A DNA stretch of 64,000 bases, from assembly GCA_949358305.1 (NCBI GenBank), contig OX442314.1:21390001-21454000 (forward strand). The letters are read 5' to 3'. Under the pieces are notes generated by a model. That model made no database searches. It saw only the letters and a list, made by a program, of their open reading frames with translations, and had not been told where the DNA came from. Below are positions 1-35,061 of this stretch, piece after piece. The stretch comes from Strigamia acuminata. Taxonomy: Eukaryota. The translations under genes and the position numbers were made by a program. How positions within the stretch are numbered: position 1 is the stretch's first letter; each line of letters begins with the position of its first letter.

Positions 1-485
1 ATAATAAACACAATCTTTCACAGTTTCAACGCAGCTACAGCAGCATCAGCGACTGCAACTGTAACAGCAGCATAAACTGGCAAATTTCCATTTTTTAAGT
101 AAAATTAAATAAAAATCAAGTTAACAAGTACAGTCAATTTACAAAATCCTATGGGTGTCTGATTTGTTAAACATATGGGCATTTTGAGACAAAAAAACTA
201 ATACAGAGAGATGGATTCTTCTTCTGCCCATACCCCACATCTGGCAGCCATCCAACAAAATGAGTTTTCACTGTAAAATATAAATAAAATGTTAATAAAT
301 GTTATTTGTGTTAGCAAACCACGATTAGCCAATAAAAGCGTTTAAATTAATCATTTGACTGATGAAAAGTTCAAAATTAAAAAACGGGAAGAACATTTGG
401 TGACAAATGATCTCAGCATCCTGAATTCGTGACATCATTTCAGCACTAAAAATATCTATTTATATTCTGAGCTACTTTTTCTGCA

Positions 486-1064
486 ATGGCCAATCTGTAA
501 GTAACCGCTTCTACATCACCTCACATACTAGAGCACATAAAACACTTCAACTTTTGATATATTTTTTTAGAACTTACCAAATGGAATTATTAACCTTTTT
601 ATTTGCAACGTTATTCATTGCCGCTATTTTAATCTTTTACTGCGTCCGAAAATGCACAATTAAAGACAACCCTGGGCAAATTCTGCTAACCAGAGATGAG
701 TGGAATTCAATACCTGATCTACCACCAACCTACACTTCCAATTCTTCATATTTCACACCACCTTTGAACCCAAATCTAGACTTTCAGAATTTAAGTCCGC
801 CGCCACCATCGTACGAATCCGAGGGGGGCGACAATCAGAATCTGCTTGTCAGAGATTCGAATCTTTTTTGGGATTCGAAAGATTCGGATGGGATTCGGAA
901 AGATTCGGATGGGATTCGGAAAGATTCGGGCGGGATTCGGAAAGATTCGGGCGAGATTCGGAAGCCATTGTCAGAGATTCGGTCAAATGTCGCACCCCTC
1001 GTACGAATCACTGGTTTTGCAAAAAGAAATTGTTGAATCCGGAAACCGTACAGCCGAAAACTGA
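486..1064 (+). pseudogene. PY-motif single-TM microprotein, frameshifted by a MITE inserted in its PPSYESL motif
   Basis: Possible exon 486-496 splices (gtaagt..ttag) in frame to 571, with a second ATG at 581. Reads MELLTFLFATLFIAAILIFYCVRKC (TM) ... LPPTY ... PPPPSYES. Removing 820-1001 plus one TSD restores PPPPSYESLVLQKEIVESGNRTAEN*. Confidence 0.8.
820..1001. mobile_element. 182-bp hAT-like MITE
   Basis: 14-bp TIRs CGAGGGGGGCGACA / TGTCGCACCCCTCG (1 mismatch). 8-bp TSD TACGAATC at 812-819 and 1002-1009. Internal ~21-bp GGGATTCGGAAAGATTCGG repeats. Confidence 0.85.
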
Positions 1065-1568
1065 GTTATCGAAAAATATATAAACAGAAAAGAAAAAAAA
1101 AATTTAAAAATCGAATCAAATAACCTTCAAAACAAATTCAATTTCTAAAAAAAACTCTCCAGAGTTGGTCGGATGTGCGCATTTATCAAGGTTAAACTCT
1201 GCCTGCATTGCAAGTCAGCGGTCCCTCGCAATGTTTGTTGAGTCTACAGATTATGACTCACACCTTGTGGAGTGTTCCAGATCCAGTTCAGTTACGAACC
1301 ACTTTTTATAAATAAAAATATTTTGCAAAATTCCGAAAAAATTTCAATCATTTCCCATTTTAACCACGACAGAAAAAAAAACGAGAAAGAAAAAAAGCAC
1401 ATGACATCACCATTTCGTTGGCCTTTGCAACACAACGTCATAAAACGGTTGCGACTGCGCACTATCAAATTAACTCGCGGTCGGGCATCGAAACCGGAGA
1501 AAGGTGAGTGGGAGTTTTTCACAAATTAGCTCCTTCATCTCGTGTTTAATCTCAAACATTTTAGTGCA

Positions 1569-1922
1569 ATGGACAGCCCCTTGCTGACATTCTTAATCAT
1601 CGCCATTGTCATCTTCATTTCTTTTATATTATGCTGTCTACTACGAAGACGGATTAATTACAGTGGTCACATCGTGTCCCCTCCGCCACGACCGGTTCTA
1701 GTGCAACAAGTGCCGCAGAGAGATGTGATCACCCAAGTGCACATCGTAAATGTTTCCAACAACGCATCGGGACCAATGTCGCCTCAAATGATTCCGTCCC
1801 CGAGCGCTCCACCGCTCACCGTATACCACGATCAACCGCCACCGTTCATGAATCTGAATTTTAATGACCAAACTGCACCACCGCCATCTTACACGTCGTT
1901 ATACCCGCACAACAAGCAGTAA
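1569..1922 (+). CDS. Single-TM microprotein with PSAP and PPSY motifs
   Basis: MDSPLLTFLIIAIVIFISFILCCLLRRR ... PSAPP ... PPPSYTSLYP. Upstream intron gtgagt(1504)..ttag(1564); AATAAA just after the stop. Confidence 0.85.
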   Translation: MDSPLLTFLIIAIVIFISFILCCLLRRRINYSGHIVSPPPRPVLVQQVPQRDVITQVHIVNVSNNASGPMSPQMIPSPSAPPLTVYHDQPPPFMNLNFNDQTAPPPSYTSLYPHNKQ

Positions 1923-2656
1923 AGGAAATAAAAGCGGATGTGTTGAGATAAATATTGAGGTCAATTGGGGTGTGGTTTCACCATGTGTTTCATTTACCAG
2001 TACACTGGTGCCATCTGAGAAATATTAAGGGAAAATATCCAATGACTTTGAACTGTCATAAGTTTTGCAAGTTTATGAGAAAATGAATGGGCAGGAAGTG
2101 TTTTGACGGGTTCCTTTAATATTTTCTACACAAATAAAAGTGTTTTCCAATTTAATACTTATTTTTTTAATACATAAAGATACTGATGAAAAAGAAAATG
2201 CTCTCATGTTCACGCGCAATTTGAGTCTTCTCGTGTTACAATGTTATCGTTACGTTATTCTAGCATCGAATCGTTTTCTACTTTATTTTGTATAATATTT
2301 ATACGCGTTTAATACGAATGTGCTTTTATAATTTTTTATATTAGATTTAAAAAAAGATTGGATTTAGTTCAGAATTCCAAGTGTTTGTATTTCAAAGAGA
2401 TTTTCAAAACGAGGAAATAAAATATTGGAATAAATCCTCGGAAGAATAACAAATTGTGAATCATTCCATGAACAAACTCTCTCTTTGTTCACGTTTACGG
2501 AACCACCTGTTTCACGTGACCGAATGTGCCAGCCTCGGTTTGCACCATCACAACACAAATCCCGAGAGGCAACGGTTAAAAATAAACATAGTAGGTGTTT
2601 AATTTTTATTTTAATAATTTTTTTTTTAAATTAACCTTTTTATATTTCATAAGGCG

Positions 2657-2998
2657 ATGAATCCAGGTGAAATCGTGCTCGTCGTGTTTGCTATGGTTTT
2701 CCTGATCTGTGTGTTCGCTTGCGTTTCCACAATCCATTGTATGAAGGCATTACTTCGATTCAAACAACGTAGAAAAAATTTATCGTATCAGATGGTAAAT
2801 TTAGATGTTAATTCTCATCATTTAACATCACCATCAGCACCTCCAAACACAACACAGTTTGTAAACGACCGCACGAATTGCGTAAATCAACAAATGGAAC
2901 CGGAGCCGCCGCCGTCATATTTCGACTTATACCCCGACCAATCGAGACAGGAATGGCGCGACGGATACCACTCGAAAATGGAAACATGGCAGCCGTAA
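2657..2998 (+). CDS. Single-TM microprotein with PSAP and PPSY motifs
   Basis: N-terminal hydrophobic helix with Cys, basic stretch RFKQRRK, then PSAPP and PPPSYFDLYP. Confidence 0.85.
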   Translation: MNPGEIVLVVFAMVFLICVFACVSTIHCMKALLRFKQRRKNLSYQMVNLDVNSHHLTSPSAPPNTTQFVNDRTNCVNQQMEPEPPPSYFDLYPDQSRQEWRDGYHSKMETWQP

Positions 2999-3239
2999 TA
3001 ACCCATCACGTAATGCTTTCTTATTTATTAAAAACACAGGTTTTGTACAAAGAATGTTGATTAAATATATTTTTCTGATAGTTGTGTTTTTTCTACCCTA
3101 TATTCCACATCCTGAACAAAATCTTAAGTGATTAGATATCTATGTATTATCTCATTTCTTGCACCGTGGGAGGTGGTGCAAATTGAATTTCTAAAGACAC
3201 AATTGGAAACTATCGTCTTGTCTTCGTGCTAATGAAAAA

Positions 3240-3721
3240 ATGCTTTCTCGTTGCAGTTGGGTTTTGATATTAAACGGCATTTTATTGCTGCCAATAATTG
3301 GTGAGTACAGCAACCATCAAATAAGCAAAATTTACCATTTGTTATTAACGTGAATTTTTGTGTTTTCACTTTTTCAGTTGCCGAAGACGTCGATCCGAGT
3401 GGTTTGCCAAAGCCCATCGCTATAACTATTTGTTTCGTCGTCGGATTGCTAATAATTCTGACCTTATGGCGGACGGTAGTGCAATGCACGGCTGAAATAA
3501 AAACGTTTCACCAACCAGTCGCTGAGCCCTCAGTTATAAATCAACATATGCTATCTGTAGAAAATTCAACACGAATTCGTCGTGCAAGTCACACCTGCAC
3601 CGCGACATCATCTCCAACAACTTTAAGCGTTAATTTACAGCCTCAACTAATACCAGTACCAAGCTCGTATTCTCAGTTGGTATTTCTCAGTCAACCATCA
3701 GCATTTAACAGCACAAACTAA
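3240..3721 (+). CDS. Type I TM microprotein (signal-peptide exon 3240-3300, exon 3378-3721) with degenerate PY tail
   Basis: MLSRCSWVLILNGILLLPII|VAEDVDPSGLPKPIAITICFVVGLLIILTLW, joined by a phase-1 GT-AG intron. Tail PVPSSYSQL. Confidence 0.75.
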
Positions 3722-4261
3722 ACTAAAACGCTACCAAAAGTAAATTCAGCCGTATTATAATGATGTAGAAACGTCTTAAGAAAGGAAGAATGCATCTTAG
3801 AATTTGTCTTGTTTGTTCAATTGGTAACAACTGATTTTATTAAATTCACAATTCTGGACTTAACAGAACTCGGTTTACAATAAAAAAAAAATAATTTTAG
3901 ACATTTGCTTACATACTGTGTTTTCTTAATTTGTACTTTTTTGTACTTATTTTAACTCACTGTGGTAAGTTTCCGCTTGCTTAGCGTACTGTTGTCAAAA
4001 AAATATTTTATTTTTGTAAATTCAAAGTATGGCAACCAAAAAATTAGAATTTTATAAAATTTTGATACAAAATATACAAAACGGTCAAACATACAAGTCA
4101 TTGCAATGTTAATTTTTCATTTTTAACTGGCAGTTTATTGCAACAGGTACCTAAAAAGCTACCAAGCAAAACATTTCTTCCAAAATTCAGTTGTTTAGGA
4201 AGACGAATGAAAGGGACTCGATGTACAAACGTATGATGCGATAAGTACAAATATCTTTAAC

Positions 4262-4502
4262 CAGAGCTTCTCAAAGTGGTGGTCTGAAGACTGGTGCCGA
4301 TCCCTGAGCAAGAGGCCTTACCGTTGAAACGCAAAGGATATGCTGTATAAGCTTTAGTAGAGTAATCTTAAAATTAGTTGGTACTTTGGGATCAGACCAC
4401 AAACTTGAATATCAAACAATCCGAACTGCATCAGAATATATGTGTACAAATACATATAAATATGATACCGGTCAGCAACCGTACATAGTTTGAGAAGCGC
4501 TC
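4262..4502. mobile_element. hAT/Charlie-like MITE (degenerate)
   Basis: Ends CAGAGCTTCTCAAAGT ... AGTTTGAGAAGCGCTC are imperfect inverted repeats; no clear TSD. Confidence 0.45.
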
Positions 4503-4708
4503 ATGTCTTGGCAACGGTCAAGAATTCCGGCATTATTATCTCGTGACGCATTTACAAATTTTAAAAAATAAACATAAGGTAACAATATCAATTCACTAAC
4601 AAATAATAATTTTTCTTTTATAATTGCTTTGATTGCACACATCAATTGTCAGAAATCACAACCAAAATATTTTTTCTCTCAATACTATTAACATTTGTTT
4701 CATTTTCC

Positions 4709-5071
4709 TCACTGCTTGTTTTGCTGATATAACGAAGAGTAAGATGGCGGCGATACGAGACGTTCGTCATAATTTCCACCAGTGGATGTGTCGGTTGGTC
4801 GTGATGGCGGTGGAGCACTCGGGTATGACGGCACTACCGTTACAGTTGGCATGCTCATCCCAGAAGTGGGCATCATATTTATCGGAATGCCTGTTGCGTA
4901 CGCGTAATGTAGTTGAGAAAGTTGAGGTCCTGGTTGAACCACGCCCGGACGTGGTGTAAGCGAAACAACTTGTCCTCGGTGATTACCCCGTCTTCGCAAG
5001 AAATACCAACATACCAAAGAAATGAAGACGGCAACACCAGCAATTATAAGAAAGAAAAAAATGACTTCCAT
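4709..5071 (-). CDS. Single-TM microprotein with PSAP and PPSY motifs; inverted paralog of the 1569 gene
   Basis: MEVIFFFLIIAGVAVFISLVCWYFLRRR ... YPSAPPP ... PPSYSSLYQQNKQ. Shares LRRR.N..G..VS and the terminal NKQ with the 1569 gene. Confidence 0.85.
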   Translation of the reverse strand: MEVIFFFLIIAGVAVFISLVCWYFLRRRGNHRGQVVSLTPRPGVVQPGPQLSQLHYAYATGIPINMMPTSGMSMPTVTVVPSYPSAPPPSRPTDTSTGGNYDERLVSPPSYSSLYQQNKQ

Positions 5072-6311
5072 AGGGAATTAAAGCACAAATCAGCACGGCA
5101 ACGAACAAACTAACTTCGTGATTCACACTCCAGTCTCAACTTACTGTCCTTGTGGCGGTTTAGCATTTCTGTCATAAGAGCGCGCTAACTGTCCATGAAC
5201 CAAACTCAAAAACAACAGCAACAGGAGCATGCATTCATAAAAAACCTACGTCCATTCCCAAGAATGATGTCCTTGTAGATACGATTGGAATTTCGAAATA
5301 CTGTTCATAAAGGTTCAAATCATCTGATCCCTGATCATGGTTCAATGTTTTTTTATTATTTATGTTCACTCTGATGGACTGCGCGATTAAAATAATTTAT
5401 ACAATCACCAAATGCGTAAATCCCGTCTTTTATCTTTTGGTTAATTCTTTGCTTTCAATTTTGCGAGGAAATCGTTAACGATTACGCAGATATGGCAGAC
5501 CTTCTAGAAGCCCGTCGGATGTCGTAACATTTTATTTTCCCAAGAATTGTTTCTTCAGCCTAGCTCCATTGGCAACAAAATCATTCTGTTCACAATCAGC
5601 AAAACTAGATATCCATTTCTGCCACGAATATTCAGAAATGACATCTTCACAGCATTTTGTAGAAAAAAAAATACATTTGCAGGCAGAAAAAAAGATTTTT
5701 GTGGGAAATAAATTCATTTTGAGCTAAGAAAAATTAATGCTATTTTTAAAGAGTATATTTAATAGTGTATCTTTTTTATTTGATTTAATGAAGATTGTAA
5801 TGACATATTTTGTCTTCTTTACAGCCCAAAACAGGCAGTAAAGTCGGCGGAGCGCGATCACACTCCACTGACAGAGAAAAAGGCATTTTGCAAGAAAGAT
5901 ATCCATTGCACCTAGTAATTCAAAGTTTTCTGCAAGAGCTGCCAAACAATTTTCCTCAACAGCAAATTTGAGAAAAATTACCCAAGAAAAAGAATAAATT
6001 CTAGTATGGCCCAACATCATAACGCCAAAGTGAAGTGAAAGGCGTCAAAAGAGAAAAATACAAACAAATTAGCACAAAAAGAAGTACTTCCTGTTTCTGC
6101 AATTGAGGATAATCGAAATAAAACCATTGGGATCTCCTCAAACAAGCAGCGTTGGCCCGTACCGAATACTAGCATCGACTATGCCGGTTAATAATATCAC
6201 TTTACCGTCTTTGCTAGTACCAATCCGGATGCAAAGTATTGACACACTGGTGGAGGTAAATACAGCTGCTGAGTTTGATGCAAAGAATAAAATCCAGAAT
6301 GTTGAAAAATT

Positions 6312-6485
6312 TGTAAAACACCGGAAAATACTATTAATGTGAATGTTAATACAACACCAATAAATGTACACCGGAGAATAAGTGATGTTCCACCTCCATC
6401 ATATCAAGATCTGTTTCCCCCTTTTCTAATTAATGAATCTAAATCATTTTGTAAACATTGGAGTATTTCTCTACTAAATAATTAA
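6312..6485 (+). pseudogene. PY-tail remnant (..RISDVPPPSYQDLFPP..) with no linked TM exon
   Basis: A family-type PPPSYxxLFP motif sits in a frame closed upstream by a stop; no TM segment found 5' of it. Confidence 0.4.
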
Positions 6486-7891
6486 CTTGCTCATACTATT
6501 GTATCACGATAACTCTCTTTATTACTAGGATTTCATATCAATCTCATTTACCACACCTTCAAACAGTCCAATATTATCTCAAGTGAATAAAAATCTAGAC
6601 ACAAAAATACACTTGAAATTATTTTTATTTAAATTTTTTTTCCAAAAAATTTAAAAATTAGAAATTTAAAAAATTATAGTTTAGAATTTTCGTGGAATTG
6701 TGGATATTTTTAGGCCCCCTGAACCCCTAACGACCGCATTGTGCATGGCTGAACATTTATTCAAGAACTGATTAGACAAAGTGACATTTCATAACAATTT
6801 TCGTAAAATCCAATCAGATATTAACTCACATTCCTTGGAGTATTCCAAACACTCCTAGTACTACGCTTAGACGAAACATAACACCTCTTAATCAAGTAAC
6901 CTTGCACTCTTTGTGCTATTGCCACAAGATTCTAAACTAGTATATTATGCGAAATACTGAGACATCTTGACCCTCAAACTTGAAAACGGATGGAAACGGA
7001 TGGCGCAATCAATCTTCCGCAGAGTGCAACATGACCATCTGGCGACAAAATACCTGGAGAATGAAGATTTTCCCCGAGACTTTCGCATAGAAAAACAGGA
7101 ATCAAAATGACGTCATATTCTCGTTAGGTAATTATCCTGAAAAACGACACAATCGAGGATAAAAATCCCCTTTCTGTACTTGAATTATTACTCTCGTTTC
7201 AACGAGAAAAAAGTCTTAACAACCTGTAATTAAATGTCAAAAGACGGTGGATTTTCAATTTTCCTGAGCATACTGTTGCTGCCAATAACAGATAGGGTTT
7301 ATCAATTAATAAATTAAATACTAAATAATCCTCACAATCCCTTTTTCTTTCTGTTTTAGTTGTCGATTGTTCTGGTAATTCTGAAGGAGTAATCAATATT
7401 GAAATTATAATATTTTCTGTATTTATCTTGTTGAAATTCTTTGGTTGGTCTGTTTAAATCTATGCGATTATTGTAAAAAAATAAATTTCTCACACTTTTC
7501 GATCGCGAACACAACAGCAGCATATGATATGAACTAAACAGAAAAATAATCGTTTGATATCTAATCACATGATAAATCAATAAATCTAAAACTTCCTATC
7601 ACCATTTTAATTCATTACTCCGTATTATTTTATATAACAATAATACGACATTATCAAATGCAGAGAGTCCACTCCTCTCCCATCTAGCGGCAAATAACAA
7701 AATCACCACAACAACTTGGCAATAGCAAGGTCAACAACTTTTTTTCCTATTGCGTCAAGAAAAAAAATTAAAATTTTCCCCGTTTTTTTTGTCTTCTCAG
7801 TACGCAGAATACGTCATATCCGTTTGTGTAAACAAGAAGAGCAGGACAGTATTTTTACCTGTAGTTCCAGCTTCAATGTTCAACTCGTATT

Positions 7892-8716
7892 ATGTTTGAT
7901 CGTGTATTATCCACAAAATGTTACTCCATCGCTGGAGTATGGATTGTTTATGCCAGTCTTTCGCTGCCAACAGTTGGTGAGTTGTTAAAAAAAAATACTT
8001 AAACAACTTTATAGGCGTGGCCTCATAAATATACATCCCGTGTTGATGTGCATCGCACTTAAAATATGAGAAAACAAACCAAACTGTCAGCTTATCAAGT
8101 TAAAATTCATTTTAAATTAAATTTTATCATGAAAACTTGGCAATTTACTAATTCCTAAAAAGAGCACTGACCAAACTTATTTCCGCACTGATGAGATGAC
8201 CTTCAAAAAACCCAGAATGCAATTCTAAGTCAAGCTGAACATTTATTTTTCTCTCATTTAGCTGCTGACAGAGTCTTACCAAGACCCATAATCGGAATAA
8301 TCTGCGTGTTCGTCGCAGCAGTTTTATTATTTGTGTGTTGTTATCCGTTATGCCGCCATCGTCGCCGACTATTATACGAGCAACAGCAACAACAGCTCGC
8401 GTATCAGTATCAGCCGTCAGGAGTCCAAGTGATTAATCAAACTGGGTTGCCAGCACAACCGACTGCACCGATCCATTATCCAACTCAAAGTTACGCGACA
8501 TCTTATCCAGTCGTTCAACAAACGCCGGCTTATCCACCGTATCCGACGAGTCCTCCGTATCCACCGACGAGTCCTCCGTATCCACCTGTAGGAGCTCAAC
8601 CGTACCAACAAACTCAACCACCATATCCCACAGAGACATCTCAGATTTCTTCAAATGTACAACCGCCACCGTACGCGGCATTGTTTCCTGATAAGACAAC
8701 GAACACTAAATACTGA
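7892..8716 (+). CDS. Type I TM protein (exons 7892-7976, 8262-8716) with Q/P/Y-rich tail, PTAP and PPPY; WBP1/VOPP1/Shisa-like architecture
   Basis: Hydrophobic leader MFDRVLSTKCYSIAGVWIVYASLSLPTV, phase-1 intron in frame to AADRVLPRPIIGIICVFVAAVLLFVCCYPLCRHRRR. Tail has PTAP, repeated SPPYP and PPPYAALFP. Confidence 0.85.
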
Positions 8717-9241
8717 GTTTATACAATTGCTGAATATAGCAAACTATTTATGAGTTATTTCACGGTTTTACACAAGTGATTTGAAACCTAAATTATTATT
8801 ATTATTGTTAAAGATGTAAGTGAATTGAAATCTGAGTTGATTAATATCATTGTTGTTATGTACAGGTATTTTTTTTAATTACTAAAAATACCTTCCTGAT
8901 TGTTTGTATTTGATAATTTTTTATACCGTACTTTATTTTTGTTTTGTGTTCATCAACGATAATGTTTATTATGTTAAACAGTTTATTTACTTTGATTAAG
9001 ACATCAAAATGGTATTTGCTTTATTTTGTTATTAAATAAAACTAAACTGATCTTTACTTCCTCAAATTATTTATTTATTTTCCGTTGGTAAACCTGCAAA
9101 TAATATGTTTGGTTCCATTTTATTTTTAATATTTAAATACCACTTCATGTATTGAACCTAAAGTGCGTGCGGCGGTATTAATCAATATATTACATGTTGC
9201 TTCGCAATAAACCTGTTGCTTAGTTATTCCTAAAACAAAAT

Positions 9242-9779
9242 ATGTCTGCTCCAATTTGGCCGTGGATCTTGTTGCTGGTGCTGCTTGTTGGTGGTAAGTT
9301 GTTTAGAATATAAATCACACTACGACAACATTTAAATATTATCAAATTATTTAGTACCAGTAGCTGCCAAATATAAGCCACCTAAACAGACCACGAATAA
9401 AGATGATGATGGTGTTCGGAGACGTAATGCCGGTCGTATTGGCGGCGCCAACGGTGGCCAAAGTGGAGGAAGCGGAGGCGAAACTTCAACAACCGGTATA
9501 ATAGTAGCCGTGGTTTCCCTACTCGTGATGATAGTGCTCGTGGGGTGTTATTGTCGGTATAAAAAATCTAATAATTCAGTTGAAGAGTCTGGTGATGCAG
9601 GCAACAATAAACAGTCACAATATGTCACCAATAGACATCCAAAAAACCAGAACAACCGAAGTCTTTCAGCTTCTGGAGATTCGACAGCTCTCTTTTTCAC
9701 ACCAGCAAGACGATTTTCAACTCGGAGTACCGTTATTGTACCTAAACATACATACAACCGAACCACACCAGTGGGATAG
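9242..9779 (+). CDS. Type I TM microprotein with Gly-rich short ectodomain (exons 9242-9293, 9355-9779); no PPxY
   Basis: Signal peptide MSAPIWPWILLLVLLVG|VPVAA across an in-frame phase-1 intron. Ectodomain GGANGGQSGGSGG, TM GIIVAVVSLLVMIVLVG, then CYCRYKK. Confidence 0.8.
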
Positions 9780-10578
9780 CAATTCATTCAACAATTTCCT
9801 CAATTATATATATATACATCTCCTCAAATTGTTTCATATTTTTATCAAGAAATGTTAATTTAAAAAATATACATTTTTATTCAACCACATTTAGTAGCAT
9901 GCAACCGATGCAACTGTTTCTATATTTGCTAATCCAGCACTTGAACTAACAGCAGAAACAAATAAACAGTGACAGAATACTACTAAATGATATTCTTTTC
10001 AGTTTACTCGACTCAACATGAGCCACCATTTCACTTCAACATGTTCCAAGGGATCATCTTTTAGCCTAATAATTCTAATTATCGTATTTGTTACATCGTT
10101 AATAATTGTTATAGCAATATTGGGAATTACCGAAGCAACTATTATATTCACAGTGATTGGTGTGATAGTGATATTGATAATTGTTATCATCTGTTGCTGC
10201 CAGCGAACTTCGGTAAAGGATCGGGCAGGGTAGAATATTTTCGACTCGGATTCCTTTCGACCGCGTTTTTTTTCGACCGGATTTTTTGCGACCGGATTTT
10301 TCTCGACCGGATTGTTTGCGACCAGGATTGTTTCCGATCAGGATTGTTTGCGACCAGGATTCTTTTCGACCGGTTGGATTGCGACCTGGAATTTTATCGA
10401 CTAGGATTCTTTGCGACCAGGATTTATCTCGACCGGGATTCACTTCGACCAGGATTCCTTTCGACTTGGTCGAAATTTAGGTAGTTTACTTTTATAAATG
10501 GACTTGTAACGTGTCAAATTTATTCATTTTTATATTTTCTTTCATCGGTACATATTTGAACCAAAATTTTGTTTTTAG

Positions 10579-11609
10579 TTTATGGCGAACGAATCTAAGG
10601 TTTGTGGAGAAGGGCTATTTCGGTAATGGCTCGTGATGTATAGCAGCACATAACTGCTCCATTTGGGTAATTTTATCCTTACTTGTTAAATTATTATTGA
10701 AATTTATGTTTACATTTTTTCTTTGTAGCAAGTGTCCGTTAATGATTGGCTAAATTGTACGGCTACTTGCGATTCGAATGGTGAAGTAGTGGGCACAGTT
10801 TTGACCCAACTTCTGCACGGCGTTGGTAATTAGAAAAGGATATCGAGAAAACGATTCGTAAGGAATATATTTCTAGTTAATATTGATTGAAATTAAAATG
10901 TATATTTTTTTTAATTGCAGCCAATTTATAGAACAAATGTTTGCAATCTAAAGACGCTAGAGTCCGATCTGGGTGACAAAATAGAGACAAATTCGTCGAA
11001 AAATTCAGCAGATAATTCAGCTCAAGATGTTCGAAGTGATCAATCGACGGCCGATTCTTGCGATCCAGCCAAACGAACGCCAGAGAAGACATCTGAGTCT
11101 TATAAAGAGACGCGGTCACGGATTACGGAATAGTTTTTATGGATAACGTACCGGTAAAAATCTAGAGACTCGTTTTATTGAATTGGTGGAAGTAAATGAA
11201 TATTTTATGGTACTTTAGTTTATTTACTTCTGTTACCTCTCGAGTATTCTATTACTCCTTAGCGATTTCATGCATTTTAATTGTATTTTTTATTAGATAT
11301 CAAATAATTTAATACCCCAGGACGAAATTACGCGATTAACTCACGCAAATACAATGACCTCATCTGATCTTCGTTCGTTTGAAATTGCATCCATTAATAA
11401 AGTGAGTGGAGATTAAAAATTAATATTATTTTAATCTAATTTTAATCTAATTTTAATCCTAATTTCAGGTGGCTTGGAGTCCAAACTTCGGATCGCATTT
11501 ATTAGTGGCTTCGGGTGAAAATTCAGGATTAATTAGGATCCATCGAATTCATTGATTGCAGCAGACAAAAGTAGAAAAACTACGGGTTAAATTGCAGACG
11601 ATGTTGTAA
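10579..11609 (+). pseudogene. GTF3C2: 3' exons of TFIIIC subunit 2 (WD40), decayed
   Basis: Spliced fragments ..GYFG..SIW|QVSVNDWLNCTATCDSNGEVV..RKRF|PIY..ASINK|VAWSPNFGSHLLVASG..SGLIRIH match my recollection of the GTF3C2 C-terminus (RRFPIY, HKVRFSPN, SGLVRIH). In-frame stops at 10634 and 10831, frameshift near 11518, 5' exons absent. Confidence 0.75.
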
Positions 11610-11805
11610 ATAAAGTGAAATAATTAAAGAAAATGTCTAATTAGCATGATTTTTAATGAAATTTCTTTGAAGGTTTAGAGTTTAACTTCGGATGTTGATA
11701 ATTTTGAAACTCGTCAATCGAATTGCAATGTCATCATTTTTATTAATAAATAAAAAATTCCAAAAAAAATTACTTTGACCAAATATTTTTATTTATTCAC
11801 ACGAA

Positions 11806-13118
11806 TCACATTTCTTCAGTTTCAACAACAACAGGCGCTTCATCATCATCTTCCCTATCAAAATCCCACTTGAATGTTTTCGTTAAATATTTTTTTAAAC
11901 CTTCTACCCTTTTCTACAATTTCGTGCGGTACTTGTTGGTTCCCGTTCAAATTGGAGAAGAAAGAATGCAATGTGTTGACGAGGAAGTTTTCACGACTGA
12001 CAATATCTACAAAGAAATCGCGAGGAATTTCCTGAAGTTGGTGATGAAGTACAAAAATGAATTTTGAATATAAATCTGCGTATTTCGTAAGAGCATTGTC
12101 GCACGAGCACAGCAAGTGGATTAAATGTTTCCATTCTTCAAATGCGTCGTACACCTGTCCTAAAATAAAACAAATAAAAGCCATTTGAAGTTCTCCGAGA
12201 ATGTCTTCAGGATCTGTATACGATTTGAGCATTTGATCTAAAGTATAGGTCAAATCTAAACTGTTTTGTGATTTCACAAAACATTTAAGTTACTTTTTTA
12301 AAATCAAAATTGTCTTTTTTTTCTTCTTACTTTTTTCAGGAAATTTGGAAAAACGAATTTCCGTTCCGGGTTTTTGACACATTTTCGGAAGAAAATCATC
12401 TAGTTTTGGTCTCTTATTTGTTCTTGTTGACGATTCACTCTCATCAGTTATTAAATGGGAAACTGACGAAATTTTTTTGTTTAATGGCTGCACCCGTTCT
12501 AAAACTGTGTCTAAGAGAATAAGTTTTGTATAAAATATTTTACAAAATACGAAATTTTTTTCCTTACCAGTCATGTAGTAGGTCTGGAAAATCCATTTTT
12601 TCCAGTTGTCGTATGGATAAGCGCCTAAATGTTTGTCAAGCTCCCTTAAATTCTCTTTAAGCCTGTCTATTTCTTCATCTGAAGTGACTTCATCTTTGAT
12701 ATCTATATTGAACGATACACAATTCAGGTTACAGACCAATTTAAACGTTAATTAAAATAACCTTCGAGATATTTATCCCATTTTGTAACAACTATTTCTC
12801 CTTTATTGAATTAATGAAAAAATCCAGTTCTGGGTGCCATTTGGTTGTCCCGACTAACTGCACTGAAATAAAGAAAATAAATTGTGGTCATTAGTCATTG
12901 CAAAATCCAAATCCAAATTTTTAACCTCGAAATTACCTGTAATATACAAAATGAATGCCCAGAGGAATCATCTTGACACCTTTGATATCGGTTTCCACAT
13001 TCTAAGTATTGTGATCTATTCCAAATTCAGTTTTTGGTGGTACATCTAAAAATATTAATGTCACACCTTCGCGAAATAAAGTCTTTGCAACATCAGGATC
13101 CATATCTTGTGAAGCCAT
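11806..13118 (-). pseudogene. AAR2: AAR2 (U5 snRNP assembly factor) homolog, intron-containing pseudogene
   Basis: Motifs EFGID..., KGVKMIPLGIHFVYYS, LDKHLGAYPYDNWKKW, LGELQMAFICF and DFFVDIVSRENFL. TAG replaces the conserved Trp at 13002-13004; acceptor lost/deletion near 12265-12285; frameshift at the T-run 11890-11896. Confidence 0.9.
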
Positions 13119-13981
13119 TGTCAATTTTACACAGGTACACGGGTTTTAGCAATGTCGCTCTCTCACTTATGATGTTTGGCCTTGGTCCAAGGTTTGGCAC
13201 GTGATTGGCACTCCTCTCCAATTCTTATCGCGTCACTCGGTCACTCACCCTACATTTAGCCAGTGACTTTGACCCATTTTTCACCCCTTTGTTTTTCAGT
13301 GAAGAAAACACAAAACTTAGGGGGCACAGAAAGGCTTGGGTGCATTGCACAACTCAAAAAACACATCAAACTCAAGTTGTGTGTTCTTACAAGGAATGAC
13401 ATTTACTTTTGTGGCTCAATCAGAGGAAAAAAATGTTTGAAATTAGCAAAAATGCAAGTGCAAAATGGAGAGGTCAGGGGCAAATTGAAAAATCGTCGGT
13501 GCAGACGACAATTAAATTAAATCAAATGAATAAAACCATGCAATATTTAGCCCAATTTAGTCTCAGGAGAGAGCATAATATTTTTCCTCGTTGTTTTATA
13601 ACCGTTTGTAGTAAATTATAGTTTACTAAATTTGAATTTCGAGCTCGTTTTTGAGCTTTTTATTCTGGCGATAGATGGCGACACGGTGAAATAGCTAATT
13701 CTAGTTTAATTAAAATAAAATAAAGTTTTTTGCGAGGAATTGCAAGAATTAGTAAGTCGGAGCACTTTGGATCGAAAACTTTAATGCATTTTGTGGCTAA
13801 ATGGAAGTCGATCCGTACTTAAAAAAAACATGTAATATTTATTCGCTCTGGTGCAGTTATTTTCTTCTGTATAACGGCAAATACAAACGGCAATAAATTA
13901 ATGTATAAGTTTTTGCAAGTAAAATAAGTCTTATTTCATCAAATAATCAGATTTTAACGAAGGTGATATTGTTTTGAAAAC

Positions 13982-14072
13982 AATAATTTGACGCGCTGTC
14001 TTTGAAATTGTTGGAAAACAATGTTTTTTCGCATGTTTTCCAACAATTTCAAAGATAGCGCGTCAAATTATT
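13982..14072. repeat. Hairpin with 39-bp inverted arms (1 mismatch) and 13-nt loop
   Basis: AATAATTTGACGCGCTGTCTTTGAAATTGTTGGAAAACA (13982-14020) against its reverse complement at 14034-14072. Confidence 0.9.
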
Positions 14073-14551
14073 CCGATGGGCGACTTCGCTGCGAAACACG
14101 TGGTCGCTAAGCAACGGAGCGATGGATAATTCTTCGCTAAATTTTAACAGTATTTTACCATTCTATTTTATATTGGTTTAAAAAAAGAAACCATGCATAA
14201 TTTATTGAGCATGAAATGAGATTCACTTTGGTGGTCAAAATGGAAGCAAATAAACTATCGGTGTTTTAATTCGTTTTTAATTTTTAATGCCAAACAGATT
14301 AGCGTAAAATGCTCCAATACATAAATATAAATCAAATAAAAATGACGTTTAGAAGTTTTTTTTTTGTTAGAAACCAATTTGGAAATTCTATTATAGGAAA
14401 TTATGCGGAATGGTGGGGGAAATGTTTGCACCTGTGTGAATCTAATAAAATCACAGAAATTTATGACTCCTAGGACGAATATTCTTCAAAAAAATTAATA
14501 TGAAACATGAAACTTTGACAATTCAATTTGTGGCGCAAGTCGGAGAGTTTA

Positions 14552-14553
<2 letters not shown>

Positions 14554-14609
<56 letters not shown>

Positions 14610-14622
14610 GTGTGTGTGTGTG
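14554..14622. repeat. (GT)n microsatellite
   Basis: Near-perfect GT run. Confidence 0.95.
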
Positions 14623-16481
14623 ACCTGTGTGAAGAGGGGCCGGAAGTGTCTTTACCCTTGAGAGGTGTGATATAAATGGCAGCAGGTGTTCCTCCTCCAA
14701 TATTCAGTAAAGAGACACCAGTCTCCTTTAGGCAAAGTCAACCCGACAGGTGTTTGAAGGGAAATGCAAGAAAAATAAATGGAAAATATAAAAGAAAGAG
14801 AGAAAGAAAGAAAGATACGACGTTCCTCGCTTTACTTGGGGCACATAACCATGAAATTAGCTTTTTTCCTGTGGCATAAAGGTGATGAGACAAATTATAA
14901 AAAGATTTTTTTTTTCTTAAAAGTTTAATTCCACATTACCGGTATGTTTGATAAATGATTTTTTGGTTAAATGCACTGCCATGAATATGTCATGATGTTT
15001 GATTCCAAGGCTTCTCACTTCCTCATAATAACCCAGGCCTTGATGTGACCTGATAAAGAGGTCTTCATTCAGCTGATTTACACCTGTTTCATTTGTTGTT
15101 TTATTTTCATTTTATGGAAGTTGTTGAAAAAGTTTTTGGTGGTAAACTTTATCAAGTTTCTGTTTCAAACATGCATTTCGTGGGATTTAAATTAATTAAA
15201 TTTAATTTAATTTTAATTTAATTTAATTTTAATTTTCTGGAAATATTTTTTTCTTTTAAAATTTGAATTTTGAATAGAAATCAAAAAAGTCACTAATTCA
15301 AGAGACAATATAATAATTTTGTTTTCCAAAACTGGAATAATTGACAAGTCTAAATGACTCGGTAATTGAATTTTCCCTCAAATTTTCCGTCGAATTTTTC
15401 ACTCGCCTTGACCTGCGCGCTCACGTGCGCGCTTGACCTGCACCCACCTGCGCCCCTCGCTTTTAATTTAATTTTTTAACTTTGGTTATTGTTAAGTTAT
15501 GTTAATGTAATGTTGAGTTCATTGTTGAAGAACGTGTTATTGCTATATCATACTGTTACATTGTTGTAAAAGCGTTACCATGACAATTTTGTATTACTCC
15601 TCACTTGCTTGTATTTTACCCACGAGTAAAGACGTGTGTTTTGTTTTCCACTTTAAAAACCTCTCCTTTATTTCAACGTGATGCCCCAGCATAACAGTTA
15701 TTAAAATTTAGCAATATCTTTGGTTTATTTTTTGTATTTTTAATATTGTTTACTATTGGCTGGAATTAGGTTTTGCTTTCGTGTTAATTTCTGAATTTTG
15801 GAGTGTTTTATTACATAACTTGATCAAAACTGCCGGTAAATTTCATATTTATTATTCAGTTTTAAAGATAATGATGTGATGATAATATGCATCTTTCCAA
15901 GTCCCATCGAATCCCCTCCGAATCCCATCCGAATCCCCAGAATCTATCCGAATCCTACGAATCCCATCCGTATAAAAAAAACAAAAACAAGTATTATCCT
16001 GTAATATTCACAGCATCGTATCACAACGTTTATTAGCAATATCAAAAAGAAAAAACAACACATTATATTTTTGATATTGTCGATCTAAACAAACTTAGTT
16101 TATTTAGCAGCTATAGAACATTTTTAATTTTATTATTAGTGGTGCTCTTTATTTATTTAGAAAAATGTAAATGTCAATGGAAAAAAAATATTTTTGTACA
16201 TTATTTTGTAAATTACATCTGCCTTGTGGCAGCACTGTTTTTAGAATATTTTACAGTAGTTTAATTTTATAATAATGAGAAATAAAAGCATTTTCACACG
16301 AATTTAATCGAATCCGATGTTTTTTCATTTGTCGAAAGAAAAAGTAGAAAAATAGGTTTGATTCTGCTTGTTTGCGACTCCAATGATGAAATTAAAGTTT
16401 GAAATTAATTTACACAGTTTTTATTTATTTGTTTGTTTATTAAAAAAAAAAATTGAATTGAAAATAAAGATTTTTGTCCGC

Positions 16482-16667
16482 TTATTGGTACTCTACCCTG
16501 AATCCCGATATAAAAGATAATCCAGTAGGCACGTTCTTCTGATATTTCACGTAATCTTGACCAAAAAAATTTAAAAGAATGAATTCTTCTTCGTGTATCC
16601 GCTCGTTAAAGAAATTCCATGATGCGATAGTGTAACCGATTAAACAGATCGGATTGCACAATACAAT
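16482..16667 (-). pseudogene. ICMT: Isolated last exon of isoprenylcysteine carboxyl methyltransferase
   Basis: After a CAG acceptor: IVLCNPICLIGY..WNFFNERIHEEEFILLNFFGQDYVKYQKNVPTGLSFISG, the ICMT C-terminus. Upstream exons are cut off by the right transposon arm. Confidence 0.85.
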
Positions 16668-17713
16668 CTGCAATTAGAAATAAACTTTTAGTGAGTAAAT
16701 GCTATAAAGAAGGCTGCAAAAGTAGATTATTTGCTTCTAAAAAATGCTTATTCAAGAAACACAATTCCAGCAATTTCCATTAAAAAATATAGTGTTGGAT
16801 TGAACAATACACATTACTCCTGTCATGTATGCAATACGTGTCATCGTCACGTATTGTATACTGACATCGTCAGTTATATAATGCGTGACATTATTTGGGG
16901 TATATAAACCCCCAACCATTGGTGAAGTCGAAAAATGTCCGGTCGAAAAAAATCCTGGTCGAGATGAATCCTGGTCGAAAATTTTCCTGGTCGAAAATTA
17001 TCCTGTTTGAGTCGAAAAAATTCCTAGTCGAAAATTTTCCTGGTCGAAAATTTTCCTGGTCGAAAATAATCCCAGTCGAAAAAAAGCGCACTTTACCTCG
17101 AGTCGAAAAGAATCCCGGTCGCAAAGAATCCGGGTCGAAAATATTCCTCCTCGCCAAGGATCGCGCTCAAGACGAGGCGAGAAGCAGACGTTATCATAAC
17201 GAATCCACAGCAGTAACGGATCTTTCACTAACAGACTTAGACTTAACAGACATTGTGCAACCAGTCGACTCAACCATCTGTGATCAATTTGCCCGTCGAA
17301 ATTACAATGAAGCAAAAAGCTTCACAACTGAAAACAAGAAATAGCAACAAGTTTGTGAAATTTTAACATTTCGAAAAGTTTTTGTAATTAGAAATACAAA
17401 ATTATTATTGTATTTTATTTTTTCTTGAAATAATTTCAAGCTTGTTTGTTAATTGATAAATTTTATTTTTGTCTTATTGAATTTGTGTTTGTTTTTTCAA
17501 TTTTTCATGATGCTTAACACACACGGTAAACATGCTGCCATCTAGTGTCAAATGTCTAAACCACTGAATGATAAATGCAAGCACTCCACGTTGGCTGCCG
17601 CAAAATGGAGTCCAGGACAATCGAGCGATCAAACTAAGGAATCTCGCGAGTTAATCTCTAAGTTTAAATCTAAGGCATTCGGAACTGATTTGTCGTCAAG
17701 AAATCGCAAGAAA

Positions 17714-19237
17714 ATGTTAATCACATACTGCCTTTCGGTTTGCACTGGCATGTTATTGCTGCCAGAAGTGGGTAAGTACACAACGGGAATAAAAGGTGTG
17801 GTCTCAAGCGCGTTCTACAGTAACCATAAAATGTCAACAACCGAAAAAAAAAAAAATCAACATCCAACACTCTGAATTAAAATTAGTTAGTCATTAAATC
17901 TAATTTTAAAATTTAAAAAAAGAAGTTTTTTTTAATACCGGTAAAAGAAAATACTTTGGTTCAAAATGCCTATGGAAAAAGTAAAAGCACCCTACCGGTA
18001 GTTCTCATTTTCTGCTACCAAGAGATTTTTCATACACACATGAGTTTATTGTTAGGACAAGTAAGGACAGTTGATTACAAAGTTCTGGCAGTTAAACGTG
18101 TTTTTTGTTTAAATGTCGTGCGCAAGCCCCCTGCGACTAAAACAGACTAAATTGACCGTCAGTTTTCAAGTTAGATCGAGATCGAGACAAGCAGTTTAAA
18201 TAATGTTAGGAGATTACAGAAGCGACAATGGTCTCACCGAGCACCGCAGGAAAGCCTCACGTTGAACAAACGTGCAGTATGAGATCACGCGGGATCAGGG
18301 GGATCCAATCAGCGATAAGTGTTATAATCTTGTAATATTTAAATTCTTGTTTCAATGAAATAAAATCACTTGTAACATTTCAACATCGTCTTAAATTTAT
18401 TTCCTAACAGTTTAAAATGCTGTTTAGTATAATTAATTTTTGAATGCGCGAACTGCTCATATCTTAAACAACAAATATTGACCAAAACAACAAATTGAGA
18501 AAACAAATTAAATTACCCGTTGAAATCAATCAATAAATTTATTACTCGTATTATTTATTATTATTATTCATTCTTTATCTTTAAAAAAAAGTCCAGATTC
18601 TCCGTATTTTTTCCAAAGAATAATAATCTTTTTTTACACAGATGCCGACGACGATTTTCACGAAACCGCGAAGAAACACATGATCATATTTATTTCTGTC
18701 GGCGTGGCAATATTCGTATTGTACGTATGCTGTACTTTTGGAATGATTTTCTTCTGCCGACGTCGAGCAGGAGGCGGTGGTCAACCAATGATGTGGGGAA
18801 GAGGCCGCCATAACCGCCATAATCGCTACGACCCTGTAGCCATGTCCGTTTTGAGCCAAGCGGCTATGCAACAACAACAAGGTGTACATCCAATGCAACC
18901 GCCCTACGCAGCAAACTACAGCAATGTGCCTATGTATCCACCTTACCAACAGCAACAACAACCCTACGGTTATCAAGGTGTGACTCTTCAACAACCGCCT
19001 GCATATCCTCAATACCAACAACAACAACAACCACCAACAACACCGACAACACAGCCACCTATTAACACTAACAGTGAATTTTCCAAGTCTTCTTACCCAC
19101 CACCAGACCCAACAGCAACAGCAGCAGGACAGATCGCTCCCACTGCTCCATACGCCACCACAGACGATACGCCGCCATTTCCCGTTTATCCAGCACAAAC
19201 TACTCAGTCTGCATCATCGGAGAAAAAATATTCGTGA
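17714..19237 (+). CDS. Type I TM protein (exons 17714-17771, 18642-19237) with Q/P/Y-rich tail, PPAY and PTAP
   Basis: Signal peptide MLITYCLSVCTGMLLLPEV|DA across an in-frame phase-1 intron. TM IIFISVGVAIFVLYVCCTFGMIFF then CRRR; tail has QPPAY and APTAPY. Confidence 0.85.
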
Positions 19238-24950: not shown

Positions 24951-25214
24951 ATGGAGCTTATGTTTGTTTTATTTCCATTCGTGGGACTGTTCCTCGTCTT
25001 GGTGATACTTTTGACACTTACGTGCTGCTTACGACTACGAGGTAGAGTTAGGCTTGGCCCTACTCGAGTCATTCCATCTCTACAGAACGTGCCTAGCGAT
25101 GTTTCAATCTATGTTTGTCAGTTACAAGAGCCGTCTTTACAATCATCAAAAGATGCACCACCAGCGTACAATCTACTATTTCCCCCACAAAACATTCTAT
25201 CAACGAAACCCTAA
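24951..25214 (+). CDS. Single-TM PY microprotein ('MELMF' subfamily)
   Basis: TM followed by TCCLRLRGR; PPAYNLLFPP. Confidence 0.85.
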   Translation: MELMFVLFPFVGLFLVLVILLTLTCCLRLRGRVRLGPTRVIPSLQNVPSDVSIYVCQLQEPSLQSSKDAPPAYNLLFPPQNILSTKP

Positions 25215-25329
25215 AGAAAACACCGTCCGAGACGAAATTATTTGTGAGAAATTCGTCCACATCCACAAAAGCCAAATTCCTGGTAAAAGATACATCCACA
25301 TTTACAACATATCTGCGTACACTGTTTCT

Positions 25330-25600
25330 TTATTTATTATCGTTTTACTGACAGTGGCTTGGTATTATGACGGTGTTTATAATGATTTCGTGCACTGCGT
25401 GTTGTTCACGAAAGGATTTGCTTTCTCGTCCAGAGACTCAGGCTCGTCCTTCAACCACACGTGCGTCGAGTGCTTTATCATATTATCAGTCTACATATAC
25501 CACATTCAACAACCTTCTTTCCAAGTAAACATGAATCCACGTCAAGATGCACCTCCTTCTACATCCAATAGACTATATTTCATTACAGCAAAACAATGAG
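25330..25600 (+). pseudogene. Decayed paralog of the 43491 PY microprotein
   Basis: Nucleotide similarity to 43491-43754 (..GTGGCTTGGTATTATGACGG..TGCGTGTTGTTCACGA..CAACCTTCTTTCCAAGTA..); start lost and frameshifted. Boundaries approximate. Confidence 0.7.
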
Positions 25601-34190: not shown

Positions 34191-34412
34191 ATGACGGATG
34201 AAGTTAAACTGTTTGTCACGGTTGCAATTCCAGTAATCGGAAAAGCGGTCGCATTTATGTGTCTAGAACTAATCATCTGGTGTTATTCTTTCGTAGGACA
34301 AAAAATACCTTCGTCTACGTCCACAAAAGCAAAATTTCTGGTAAAAGATACATCAACATTTACAACACATCTGCGTGTACTGTTTTTTTTTTATTTATTA
34401 TCGTTTTACTGA
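34191..34412 (+). pseudogene. Chimeric/truncated MTDEV-type gene at a duplication junction
   Basis: Matches the 44250 gene up to ~34306, then switches to sequence matching ~25250 onward; PY tail lost. Confidence 0.75.
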
Positions 34413-34658
34413 CAGTGGCTTGGTATTATGACGGTGTTTATAATGATTTCGTGCACTGCGTGTTGTTCACGAAAGGATTTGCTTCGTCTAGAGACTCAGG
34501 CTCGTCCCTTCAACCACACGTGCGTCGAGTGCTTTATCATATTATCAGTCTACGTATACCACATTCAACAACCTTCTTTCCAAGTAAACATGAATCCACG
34601 TGCACCTCCTTCTACACATCCAATGGACTATATTTCATTCCAGCAAAACAACGAGTAG
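34395..34658 (+). pseudogene. Decayed 43491-type paralog (duplicate of 25330-25600)
   Basis: Near-identical to 25330-25600; lacks the start and the PY motif. Confidence 0.7.
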
Positions 34659-35061
34659 AAATTCAACCATAAAATACAGCTCGACGATAAATGAATGTTT
34701 TATTTTTCCAGTGATGATATTTTTTTGTATTATTTTTTGCATTCTTGGCAACTTTAGTTAATATTTTTTATTTATAAAGATTTACTACCTAATTATCTTT
34801 TGAACTTGTTCCAAAACAAATTTATTTCAATTCAAACAACAATTTAGTGGATTGAACTGTATTAACCGCTATCTGCCTTATCATTAGCAAACTGCAACAA
34901 CCTACACGTCCTAACTACAATATCTTTTCAGGATCGTTTAACCTTAACTTTAATAATAACTATTTTTGTTCTAAGATAAAAAGGTAAGTTATAAACACAC
35001 CTGTAATATTATTTCCAACCAATTAAGGATACCAATTTTTGCCAGTCTTTGTTTTTCTACA

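Follow-up and report, generated by a model that had tools for sequence, protein, structure and literature searches.

A transposable element of 6932 bp (10224-17155) lies between two exact 8-bp target-site duplications (TSDs) in the Strigamia acuminata window, by which we mean the whole 64-kb stretch of DNA analysed here. Between two foldback arms it carries a tentatively identified GTF3C2 fragment, an AAR2 copy, a non-coding middle and the 3' part of ICMT, and it interrupts a small predicted membrane-protein gene (Table 1).

Table 1. Features of the element and of the interrupted host gene, in window coordinates.
Feature	Position	Strand	Details
Host ORF, 5' part	10018-10223	+	Cys cluster preceded by two hydrophobic stretches
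Left TSD, AAGGATCG	10216-10223	+	sequence; empty-site joint with exactly 8 letters fitting both sides
Left foldback arm	10224-10465	+	~242 bp; terminal motif of ~10 bp with GG at its start, followed by 15 units of 15-16 bp
3' end (five exons) of a WD40 gene, tentative GTF3C2/TFIIIC110	10579-11555	+	5'-truncated, in-frame stops; GT-AG sites
AAR2 pseudogene, from start to stop, introns kept	11806-13118	-	ATG 13118 to TGA 11806
Putative internal capture junction	13134-13138	.	donor-like AAR2 contigs stop matching; X3 record 20, X4 record 27
Non-coding middle, 2.9 kb	13139-16073	.	nested repeats, 91-bp palindrome, (GT)n; amplified with the element
ICMT 3' UTR, last exon, part of preceding intron	16074-16810	-	last exon 16667-16482; X4 record 29
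Subterminal stretch, apparently common to other family members	16811-16926	.	variant joint 16813-16918, loose ends at 16884; putative assignment
Right foldback arm	16927-17155	-	~229 bp; 13 units, ends in CC
Right TSD, AAGGATCG	17156-17163	+	sequence and empty-site joint
Host ORF, 3' part	17164-17344	+	empty allele in X1, X2, X4

The 6.9-kb element is real. Its TSD is perfect, as the initial annotation had it: the computed chance of an exact 8-mer match at these fixed positions is about 3e-5, and a 9-bp TSD is ruled out since the duplication does not extend past 8 bp. The ends read GGC..GCC, with matches of 18/22, the inverted identity first described, and of 44/54. The terminal 10 bp of the two ends agree at 6 of 10 positions and are not palindromic, unlike the Muta1 motif; a palindromic 10-bp terminal motif is a feature of Muta1, not a rule of the MULE superfamily. 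Arms of tandem ~20-mers had been claimed, and while the arms stand, their unit measures 15-16 bp (14/14 left spacings, 10/12 right). The arm core matches the window four times where 0.01 matches would be expected, each time inside the two arms, and no additional arm copies were found within the 64 kb; in metagenome contigs and in viral contigs, searches with the arm patterns gave 0 loci each. A Pfam scan of 53 reading frames in total returned no transposase family in any of the 44 scanned middle and subterminal frames of at least 35 aa, in agreement with the claim that no transposase is visible. A Pack-type element is one in which non-TE host sequence lies between the TIRs of a single element, on both sides, and this is what we find. 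This supports reading the locus as a Pack-type TIR transposon that is non-autonomous and captured its cargo at the DNA level, introns being kept; retroposition is ruled out as the cargo source because the introns are retained.

Further evidence comes from four public sequencing runs in three studies (X1 to X4, X1 and X2 being one study that may include the source sample). An empty-site joint from 10215 to 17156, which skips 6940 positions and has 8 letters fitting both sides, is present in X1, X2 and X4 (3/4 runs, 2/3 studies), at a depth of 90.7 in X1 and of 200 in X2, against an X2 flank of 395-489. Because these runs contain the exact empty site, the insertion is polymorphic. Contigs break exactly at 10223, 10224 and 17156, and a multicopy X1 contig begins exactly at 10224, the left element end. 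No contig among the 32 of 1845 pieces listed bridges a filled junction, and we infer the filled allele from the fork positions. Excision restores an open reading frame, as had been proposed: the host ORF is then 128 aa long, against a stop at 71 aa in the filled allele. Of the host label "microprotein gene", the small ORF holds but the term is loose, as an in-frame AG acceptor at 10004-10005 lies ahead of the ORF and an upstream exon may be present.

Among the cargo genes, AAR2 had been described as running from start to stop on the minus strand. Its extent, strand and introns are confirmed, but it is a pseudogene with five lesions that had gone unremarked: stops at 13002-13004 and 12811-12813, a lesion at ~12277-12330, and frameshifts at ~12261 and ~11895. 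For ICMT, the assignment of a minus-strand last exon is borne out by Pfam (PF04140, E 6e-6) and by a 92% match to the Strigamia maritima protein, and the closest proteins to both the AAR2 and the ICMT cargo come from that species. Donor-like single-copy contigs and alleles for both genes are present in the sequencing runs, with donor-like AAR2 alleles at 12261, 12580 and 12588 common to X3, X4 and the single-copy fraction of X2.

The third gene, annotated as an intron-containing 3' GTF3C2 on the plus strand, does consist of truncated exons with GT-AG sites, but its name is tentative, resting on sequence likeness of which no search was significant. Two of five PDB queries placed its last exon against residues 856-880 of human GTF3C2 (E 0.38-0.51), at the expected C-terminal position, and three other exon queries returned no GTF3C2 match in the PDB. 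Two large protein searches gave no hit either, one with 0 among 243 candidates and the other with 0 in a representative library. In one of the two PDB queries that reached GTF3C2, PEX7 had a slightly better total score (E 0.047), made up of several weak stretches.

We next asked whether the loaded element is a one-off. Six listed X1 contigs cover 4172 of the 6932 element bases with 0 differences, at a depth of 1391-1570 against 90.7 (15.3-17.3x), or about 15x flank depth. The X2 cargo contigs are identical to the window letter for letter at 9-14x flank depth, and X3 cargo has a depth of 2-6x with 0.7-2.3% divergence. X3 itself is ~2% diverged. Copy number was estimated from contig depth, which is not itself a copy number; on this basis recent amplification into a family of ~10-15 near-identical loaded copies is likely, rather than a one-off. 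The contigs that contain the AAR2 lesions have multicopy depth and do not differ from the window; being common to the amplified copies, the lesions indicate that AAR2 decayed before the spread. The earlier reading left out both this decay and the likely multicopy state of the loaded element.

Depth is evidence of amount, not of individual copies, and the near-identity of the copies would also suit a tandem array, a segmental duplication or an assembly artefact in place of dispersed transposition. We regard any of these as very improbable: the depth step coincides exactly with the TSD-defined ends, the flanks are at single depth, and the empty site is exact. Moreover, a head-to-tail joint at a depth of ~1300 would outrank X1's listed joints (45-561), and none is present among the 15 best-supported of 42 joints. 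Hardly credible at all is the idea that each arm is a small element of its own and that the two flank host DNA by chance, the outcome that the initial annotation had named as fatal to its reading. The right arm is indeed common to many other elements (X1 bin depth 6094 against ~1500), but a single TSD pair encloses all 6932 bp, the cargo was amplified together with the arms, and the exact empty site, an allele without the entire 6932 bp, largely refutes it. Within X3, a depth dip over 12358-13134 hints at an AAR2-deleted subfamily, though it may be a filter effect; if X3 copies held that part, an unbroken X3 donor contig over the dip arose in 0 of 20000 simulations.

The cargo had been taken for one contiguous GTF3C2-AAR2-ICMT segment, which the donor-like contigs do not support. 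In two studies these contigs cease to follow the element a short way upstream of the AAR2 start, a sign of at least two captures: X3 record 20, a single-copy genomic contig (6707 bp, depth 12.5, 4.4% diverged), departs at 13134, and the spliced-looking X4 record 27 departs at 13138. X4 was treated as transcript-like, its pieces ending at or no more than 5 bases from splice sites. The middle region beyond this point has contigs (14181-14542 and 15668-16166) at an X1 depth of ~1400, and no donor-like continuation of it was found among the rows listed. None of its 41 frames matched a Pfam family above cut-off, two weak matches being attributed to chance, and seven Rfam miRNA-family matches to the palindrome (13982-14072), all below gathering score, were taken as chance matches to a hairpin. 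A nested transposon starting at 13139 was rejected, as no inverted partner end was found.

Could a single capture nevertheless account for the cargo, the region upstream of AAR2 having diverged later by insertions in the element or the donor? The GTF3C2-like and AAR2 3' ends lie tail to tail with poly(A) signals ~45 bp apart, like native neighbours, nested repeats of high copy number lie in the middle (depth peaks 15340-15970), and cargo divergence from donor-like contigs is alike across genes (3-6%), all of which speaks for it. We nonetheless consider it unlikely. Record 20 extends 5.9 kb upstream of 13134 with no second match listed, whereas ICMT is 2.9 kb away in the element, and record 27 begins with 60 letters that have no match, at a point where the window shows no AG acceptor. 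The ICMT module is also deeper than other element parts (X1 1570 against ~1400; X3 74 against 27-45), and the S. maritima AAR2 and ICMT accessions are ~2500 serial steps apart, a weak point that assumes that numbering follows gene order. Probably, then, two or more capture events built the cargo. If the donor had acquired an insertion upstream of AAR2 at a later time, this too could look like a break at 13134-13138.

As to the superfamily, the ambiguity between a foldback MULE and Merlin that had been noted persists, GG termini and an 8-bp TSD suiting both. hAT and P elements have 8-bp TSDs with CA-type or TA-type termini, and were rejected on account of the GG termini. The TSD falls within the 8-11 bp of MULEs, and the TIRs, as in MULEs, exceed 100 bp and contain subterminal tandem units; terminal GG with an 8-9-bp TSD is equally what Merlin has. 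We lean towards a MULE, view Merlin (IS1016-related) as a doubtful candidate, and give any other superfamily still less weight. A Merlin assignment, which would leave the mechanism otherwise unchanged, draws on TIRs of 24-462 bp, a range that includes ours, with terminal GG and 8-9-bp TSDs, and on imperfect TIRs and internal tandem repeats, all reported for Merlin in the available part of PMC8101967. That part makes no mention of gene capture for Merlin, however, and no IS1595/IS1016-type DDE transposase (DDE_Tnp_IS1595) appeared in the reading frames scanned with Pfam. For arthropod MULEs, by contrast, long arms built from subterminal units of 9-15 bp are documented together with 8-9-bp TSDs and cargo from host genes (10/12 long-TIR Aedes families).

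In design, the arms most resemble those of Muta1-type foldback MULEs of Aedes aegypti, likewise an arthropod. Muta1 and derivatives such as Muta1NA3 (type-2 foldback MULEs; PMC5225508, PMC5499845) have long TIRs made of a ~10-bp terminal motif and tandem units of 15-16-bp period, with 8-9-bp TSDs (PMC5225508); they insert in genes, and ~20% of derivatives carry host-gene fragments (PMC5225508, PMC5499845). Muta1NA3, however, is 1623 bp long with a 276-bp fragment, and the named multicopy example has 4 copies (PMC5225508, PMC5499845), against 6.9 kb, three genes, a whole AAR2 and ~10-15 copies by depth here. The S. acuminata termini are asymmetric and non-palindromic, and the likeness shown is one of architecture, not of sequence relationship or transposase. 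The Mutator/foldback family Tm1 of Meloidogyne likewise has terminal motifs that are asymmetric, tandem units of 13-15 bp, arms of unequal length, empty sites and captured sequence, in its case a histone hairpin; it differs in its mostly 9-bp TSD, its size (~1-2.6 kb) and its lack of protein-coding cargo (PMC3169594).

Animal Pack-TIRs and Drosophila Ssk-FB4 share intron-containing host DNA between TIRs and repetitive foldback arms; Ssk-FB4 is also polymorphic and, as is likely here, multicopy, and the S. acuminata element fits the FoSTeST model for multicopy cases (available part of PMC8277862). Ssk-FB4 comprises four copies of one intact, expressed gene, whereas the cargo here is ~6.3 kb, multi-gene and decayed. 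According to the same part of that source, 370 Pack-TIRs in 100 reference genomes have a median cargo of 224 bp and only four are multicopy, with no Pack-MULE and none from insect reference genomes among them. Plant Pack-MULEs are non-autonomous too, with long TIRs, 8-11-bp TSDs, often several copies and fragments from distant loci; here the host is an animal, and the size is at their 7-kb upper limit, most being 1-2 kb (PMC6431247). A "tinkering loci" preprint makes no mention of MULE, foldback or terminal inverted repeats. The element is thus of the already known Pack-MULE/Pack-TIR kind, and unusually large and high-copy for an animal.

Taken together, we are fairly confident that this is a transposase-less TIR element holding intron-containing AAR2, ICMT and probably GTF3C2 pieces, likely from at least two captures, and that a transposase provided in trans, most likely an enzyme of the foldback MULE type, likely copied it to ~10-15 sites. 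The arms, TSD, intron-containing cargo and exact empty site are observed directly. Template switching, in the course of either gap repair or replication, would have brought host DNA into an empty foldback element, the tail-to-tail GTF3C2-3'/AAR2 pair perhaps once and ICMT and the middle separately. Following AAR2 decay, a trans-acting transposase may have bound the 16-bp units, by analogy with Muta1, whose transposase binds arm tandem units (PMC5499845), and would then have cut and pasted the whole 6.9 kb, leaving 8-bp TSDs. The present copy, absent from other chromosomes, shortens the ORF it entered.

As a mechanism this is already known, and the cargo, to all appearance dead, is likely a passenger rather than a working gene family. 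A far bolder reading, to which we give little credence, would be an animal Pack-MULE that is still active, gathering genes one after another at several loci and moving 6.9 kb at a time; three essential housekeeping genes would then have 10-15 dead copies in a transposon context, where piRNA/siRNA silencing would cross-target the real AAR2, TFIIIC and ICMT, a maize-type capture conflict in an arthropod. Mobile gene-carrying TIR transposons, common in plants, are seldom met with in surveys of animals (available part of PMC8277862). This one, near the size ceiling, with three genes, likely 10-15 copies and still segregating, would let capture order be read from intermediates, and would test whether large cargo limits transposition and whether, in an arthropod, small RNAs cross-talk with donor genes that are essential. 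In practical terms, it would supply annotation and phylogenomics with many false paralogues of single-copy genes.

The element (10224-17155) lies in a perfect 8-bp target-site duplication: AAGGATCG is present at both 10216-10223 and 17156-17163, with no extension beyond 8. As initially annotated, the 6932 bp between the duplications begin with GGC and end with GCC, and the termini show an inverted identity of 18/22; over a longer stretch we count 44/54. The arms are tandem arrays with a shorter period than the ~20-mers first described (see table); their core gives four matches in the window versus 0.01 expected, none outside the two arms. With the element and one duplication deleted, a host ORF of 128 aa starts at 10018 and encodes two hydrophobic segments followed by a Cys cluster, whereas in the filled allele the reading frame ends after 71 aa, so that excision does restore the frame.

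We compared the window with contigs from four public sequencing runs (X1-X4; three studies, X1 and X2 sharing one), using the best 32 of 1845 pieces and the best 15 of 42 joints. An exact empty site, a joint between 10215 and 17156 at which exactly 8 letters are compatible with either side, was present in three runs (X1, X2 and X4); flank coverage in X3 is poor. The X1 empty-site contig (5474 bp, depth 90.7) has zero differences. In X2, the joint has a depth of 200 versus 395-489 for the flanks, and flank contigs stop at 10223 and begin at 17156, as a mixture of filled and empty alleles in this run would produce. No contig among those best 32 pieces bridges a filled junction, and we therefore infer the filled allele.

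Taking contig depth as an estimate of copy number, six X1 contigs cover 4172 of the 6932 element bases with zero differences at 15.3-17.3 times the flank (depth 1391-1570). The corresponding ratio is 9-14 in X2, and in X3 it is 2-6 relative to that run's own single-copy contig, with 0.7-2.3% divergence. Dispersed rather than head-to-tail copies are favoured, because the first X1 element contig starts exactly at base 10224 and a head-to-tail joint is absent among the best 15 of 42. Over the right arm (16813-17155), depth is about four times that of the cargo, and both loose ends and variant joints occur there; this arm likely belongs to a family with many further members that carry other interiors.

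Features of the element and its surroundings (window positions)
Feature	Position	Strand	Description
Left arm			tandem array, 15 units, 15-16-bp period
Right arm			tandem array, 13 units, 15-16-bp period
AAR2 copy	13118 to 11806	minus	GT-AG introns kept
ICMT last exon	16667-16482		right part of cargo
Palindrome	13982-14072		near-perfect, 39-bp arms, 97%, 13-base loop
Minisatellite family	15891-15973; 869-982		11 bp; in cargo and in neighbouring ORF
Interspersed repeat	17900-18410		high-copy, many variant joints, directly downstream of host gene
Small-ORF cluster	425-19237; 45848-46306		~10 ORFs, single-pass membrane look
ORF pair	28445-28894; 37680-38048	minus	nearly identical
Look-alike pair	25015-25599; 34208-34672		resemble each other
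BED-finger ORF	38931-39995	minus	PF02892, E 7e-9; 11/77-bp tandem repeat ahead
gag-pol-like ORF	48922-53172	plus	unbroken, 1416 aa; GC-rich block; labelled by inspection

The closest relative of the AAR2 exon is Strigamia maritima (82%, among 80 matches listed). The copy runs from start to stop on the minus strand, as initially annotated, and keeps its introns, but its damage had gone unnoticed. Measured against the S. maritima protein, the reading frame is shifted near 12261 and 11895 and interrupted by stop codons at 13002-13004 and 12811-12813, and a lesion at ~12277-12330 has cost the gene several codons and a splice acceptor. These lesions are common to copies of the element. The window is matched without a difference by an X1 contig of depth 1424 that spans the two stops and by an X2 contig of depth 5124 that spans the two frameshifts, so AAR2 was broken prior to the burst. 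Separately, an X1 contig at single-copy depth (103) links intronic positions 12921 and 10525 with 6 letters between, which could reflect rearrangement in one copy or a fortuitous match between AT-rich sequences.

The ICMT exon is as annotated, its closest relative again being S. maritima (92%, among 11 matches listed). With both genes closest to that species, the host is likely a relative of it among the geophilomorph centipedes. To the left, tail to tail with AAR2, is a gene of five plausible exons with its 3' end at 11555. Its assignment to GTF3C2 is only probable, because the last exon aligns with residues 856-880 of 925 of the human protein at E 0.38-0.51, and no match came from queries with three further exons or from two large searches. 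A coding family was recognised in 0 of 41 reading frames of the middle (13139-16073), and, as noted before, no transposase was found in the element's reading frames. The palindrome in the cargo, whose miRNA-family matches in Rfam all fall under the gathering score, may be a MITE or a source of hairpin RNA that was copied along with the element. Very high depth over 15340-15970 marks a nested high-copy repeat. Somatic piRNAs in arthropods are reportedly the subject of 10.1101/185694. Small-RNA conflict is the topic of bioRxiv 10.1101/777037.

The cargo had been read as one contiguous GTF3C2-AAR2-ICMT segment, from which donor-like contigs depart. One X3 contig, record 20, is 6707 bp long at depth 12.5. 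From 12358 to 13134 it follows the window through introns at 4.4% divergence, and its further 5923 letters have no match among those listed; X4 record 27 matches as far as 13138, beyond which 60 letters are unmatched. The element places ICMT only 2.9 kb past this break. Donor-like alternative alleles at 12261, 12580 and 12588 occur in X3, in X4 and in a fraction of X2 whose depth is close to single copy, and those at 16517 and 16533 encode residues found in S. maritima ICMT. X4 looks spliced, although not on record as RNA, because the ends of its pieces fall on splice sites or no more than 5 bases away (12937, 12331, 12505, 16671) and the translated loose end at 16671 gives the residues preceding this exon in 3 of the 4 ICMT homologues listed. 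The ICMT module is slightly deeper than the remaining cargo (1570 versus ~1400 in X1; 74 versus 27-45 in X3), a hint of family members with this module alone. The S. maritima AAR2 and ICMT accessions (T1IJM4, T1IQK6) are ~2500 steps apart, a weak indication that assumes serial order. An insertion on the donor side could also have caused the break after a single capture; X3 is itself ~2% diverged, and contiguity is judged from the best 32 of the 1845 pieces and the best 15 of the 42 joints. On balance, we think it probable that the cargo derives from two or more captures.

Host DNA may have been captured into a foldback element through template switching, and cut-and-paste amplification by a transposase acting in trans would have followed. 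This scheme is based on the model that PMC8277862 gives for multicopy gene-carrying TIR elements, a paper whose main text does not mention Strigamia or centipedes, and on the demonstrated role of Muta1 subterminal units in binding and excision (PMC5499845). Among the designs described in these sources, Aedes Muta1 is the closest: its 145-bp TIR combines a 10-bp terminal motif with nine 12-bp units and 3-4-bp spacers, its TSDs are 8-9 bp, and ~20% of derivatives carry host-gene fragments (PMC5225508). The GG ends and 8-bp TSDs of Merlin fit likewise (PMC8101967), MULE TSDs are given as 8-11 bp (PMC6446971), and Tm1, of the Mutator/foldback family, has asymmetric ends (PMC3169594). Because the nematode Tm1 paper describes foldback arms with several transposase classes (PMC3169594), an autonomous partner is needed to settle the superfamily. 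Pack-MULEs are described as mostly 1-2 kb, with a ceiling of 7 kb (PMC6431247). Gene-carrying TIR elements are already known in animals, and this one is extreme for its size, the number of genes it carries and its copy number; among the matches listed in the literature searches, none described one from a myriapod.

Around the host ORF, the small-ORF cluster has only sub-threshold Pfam matches; a PPxY motif is found in 7/9 and a CC pair in 4/9 of the neighbours checked, and we take these proteins to resemble Shisa-like or WBP1-type adaptors. The BED-finger ORF looks like a hAT transposase fragment, and its region has no arms in common with the element. The nearly identical ORF pair, without a Pfam match, looks like an ionotropic-receptor exon; together with the second look-alike pair, it suggests a local duplication ~9.2 kb apart. 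The gag-pol-like ORF is likely a young Ty3/gypsy LTR retrotransposon.
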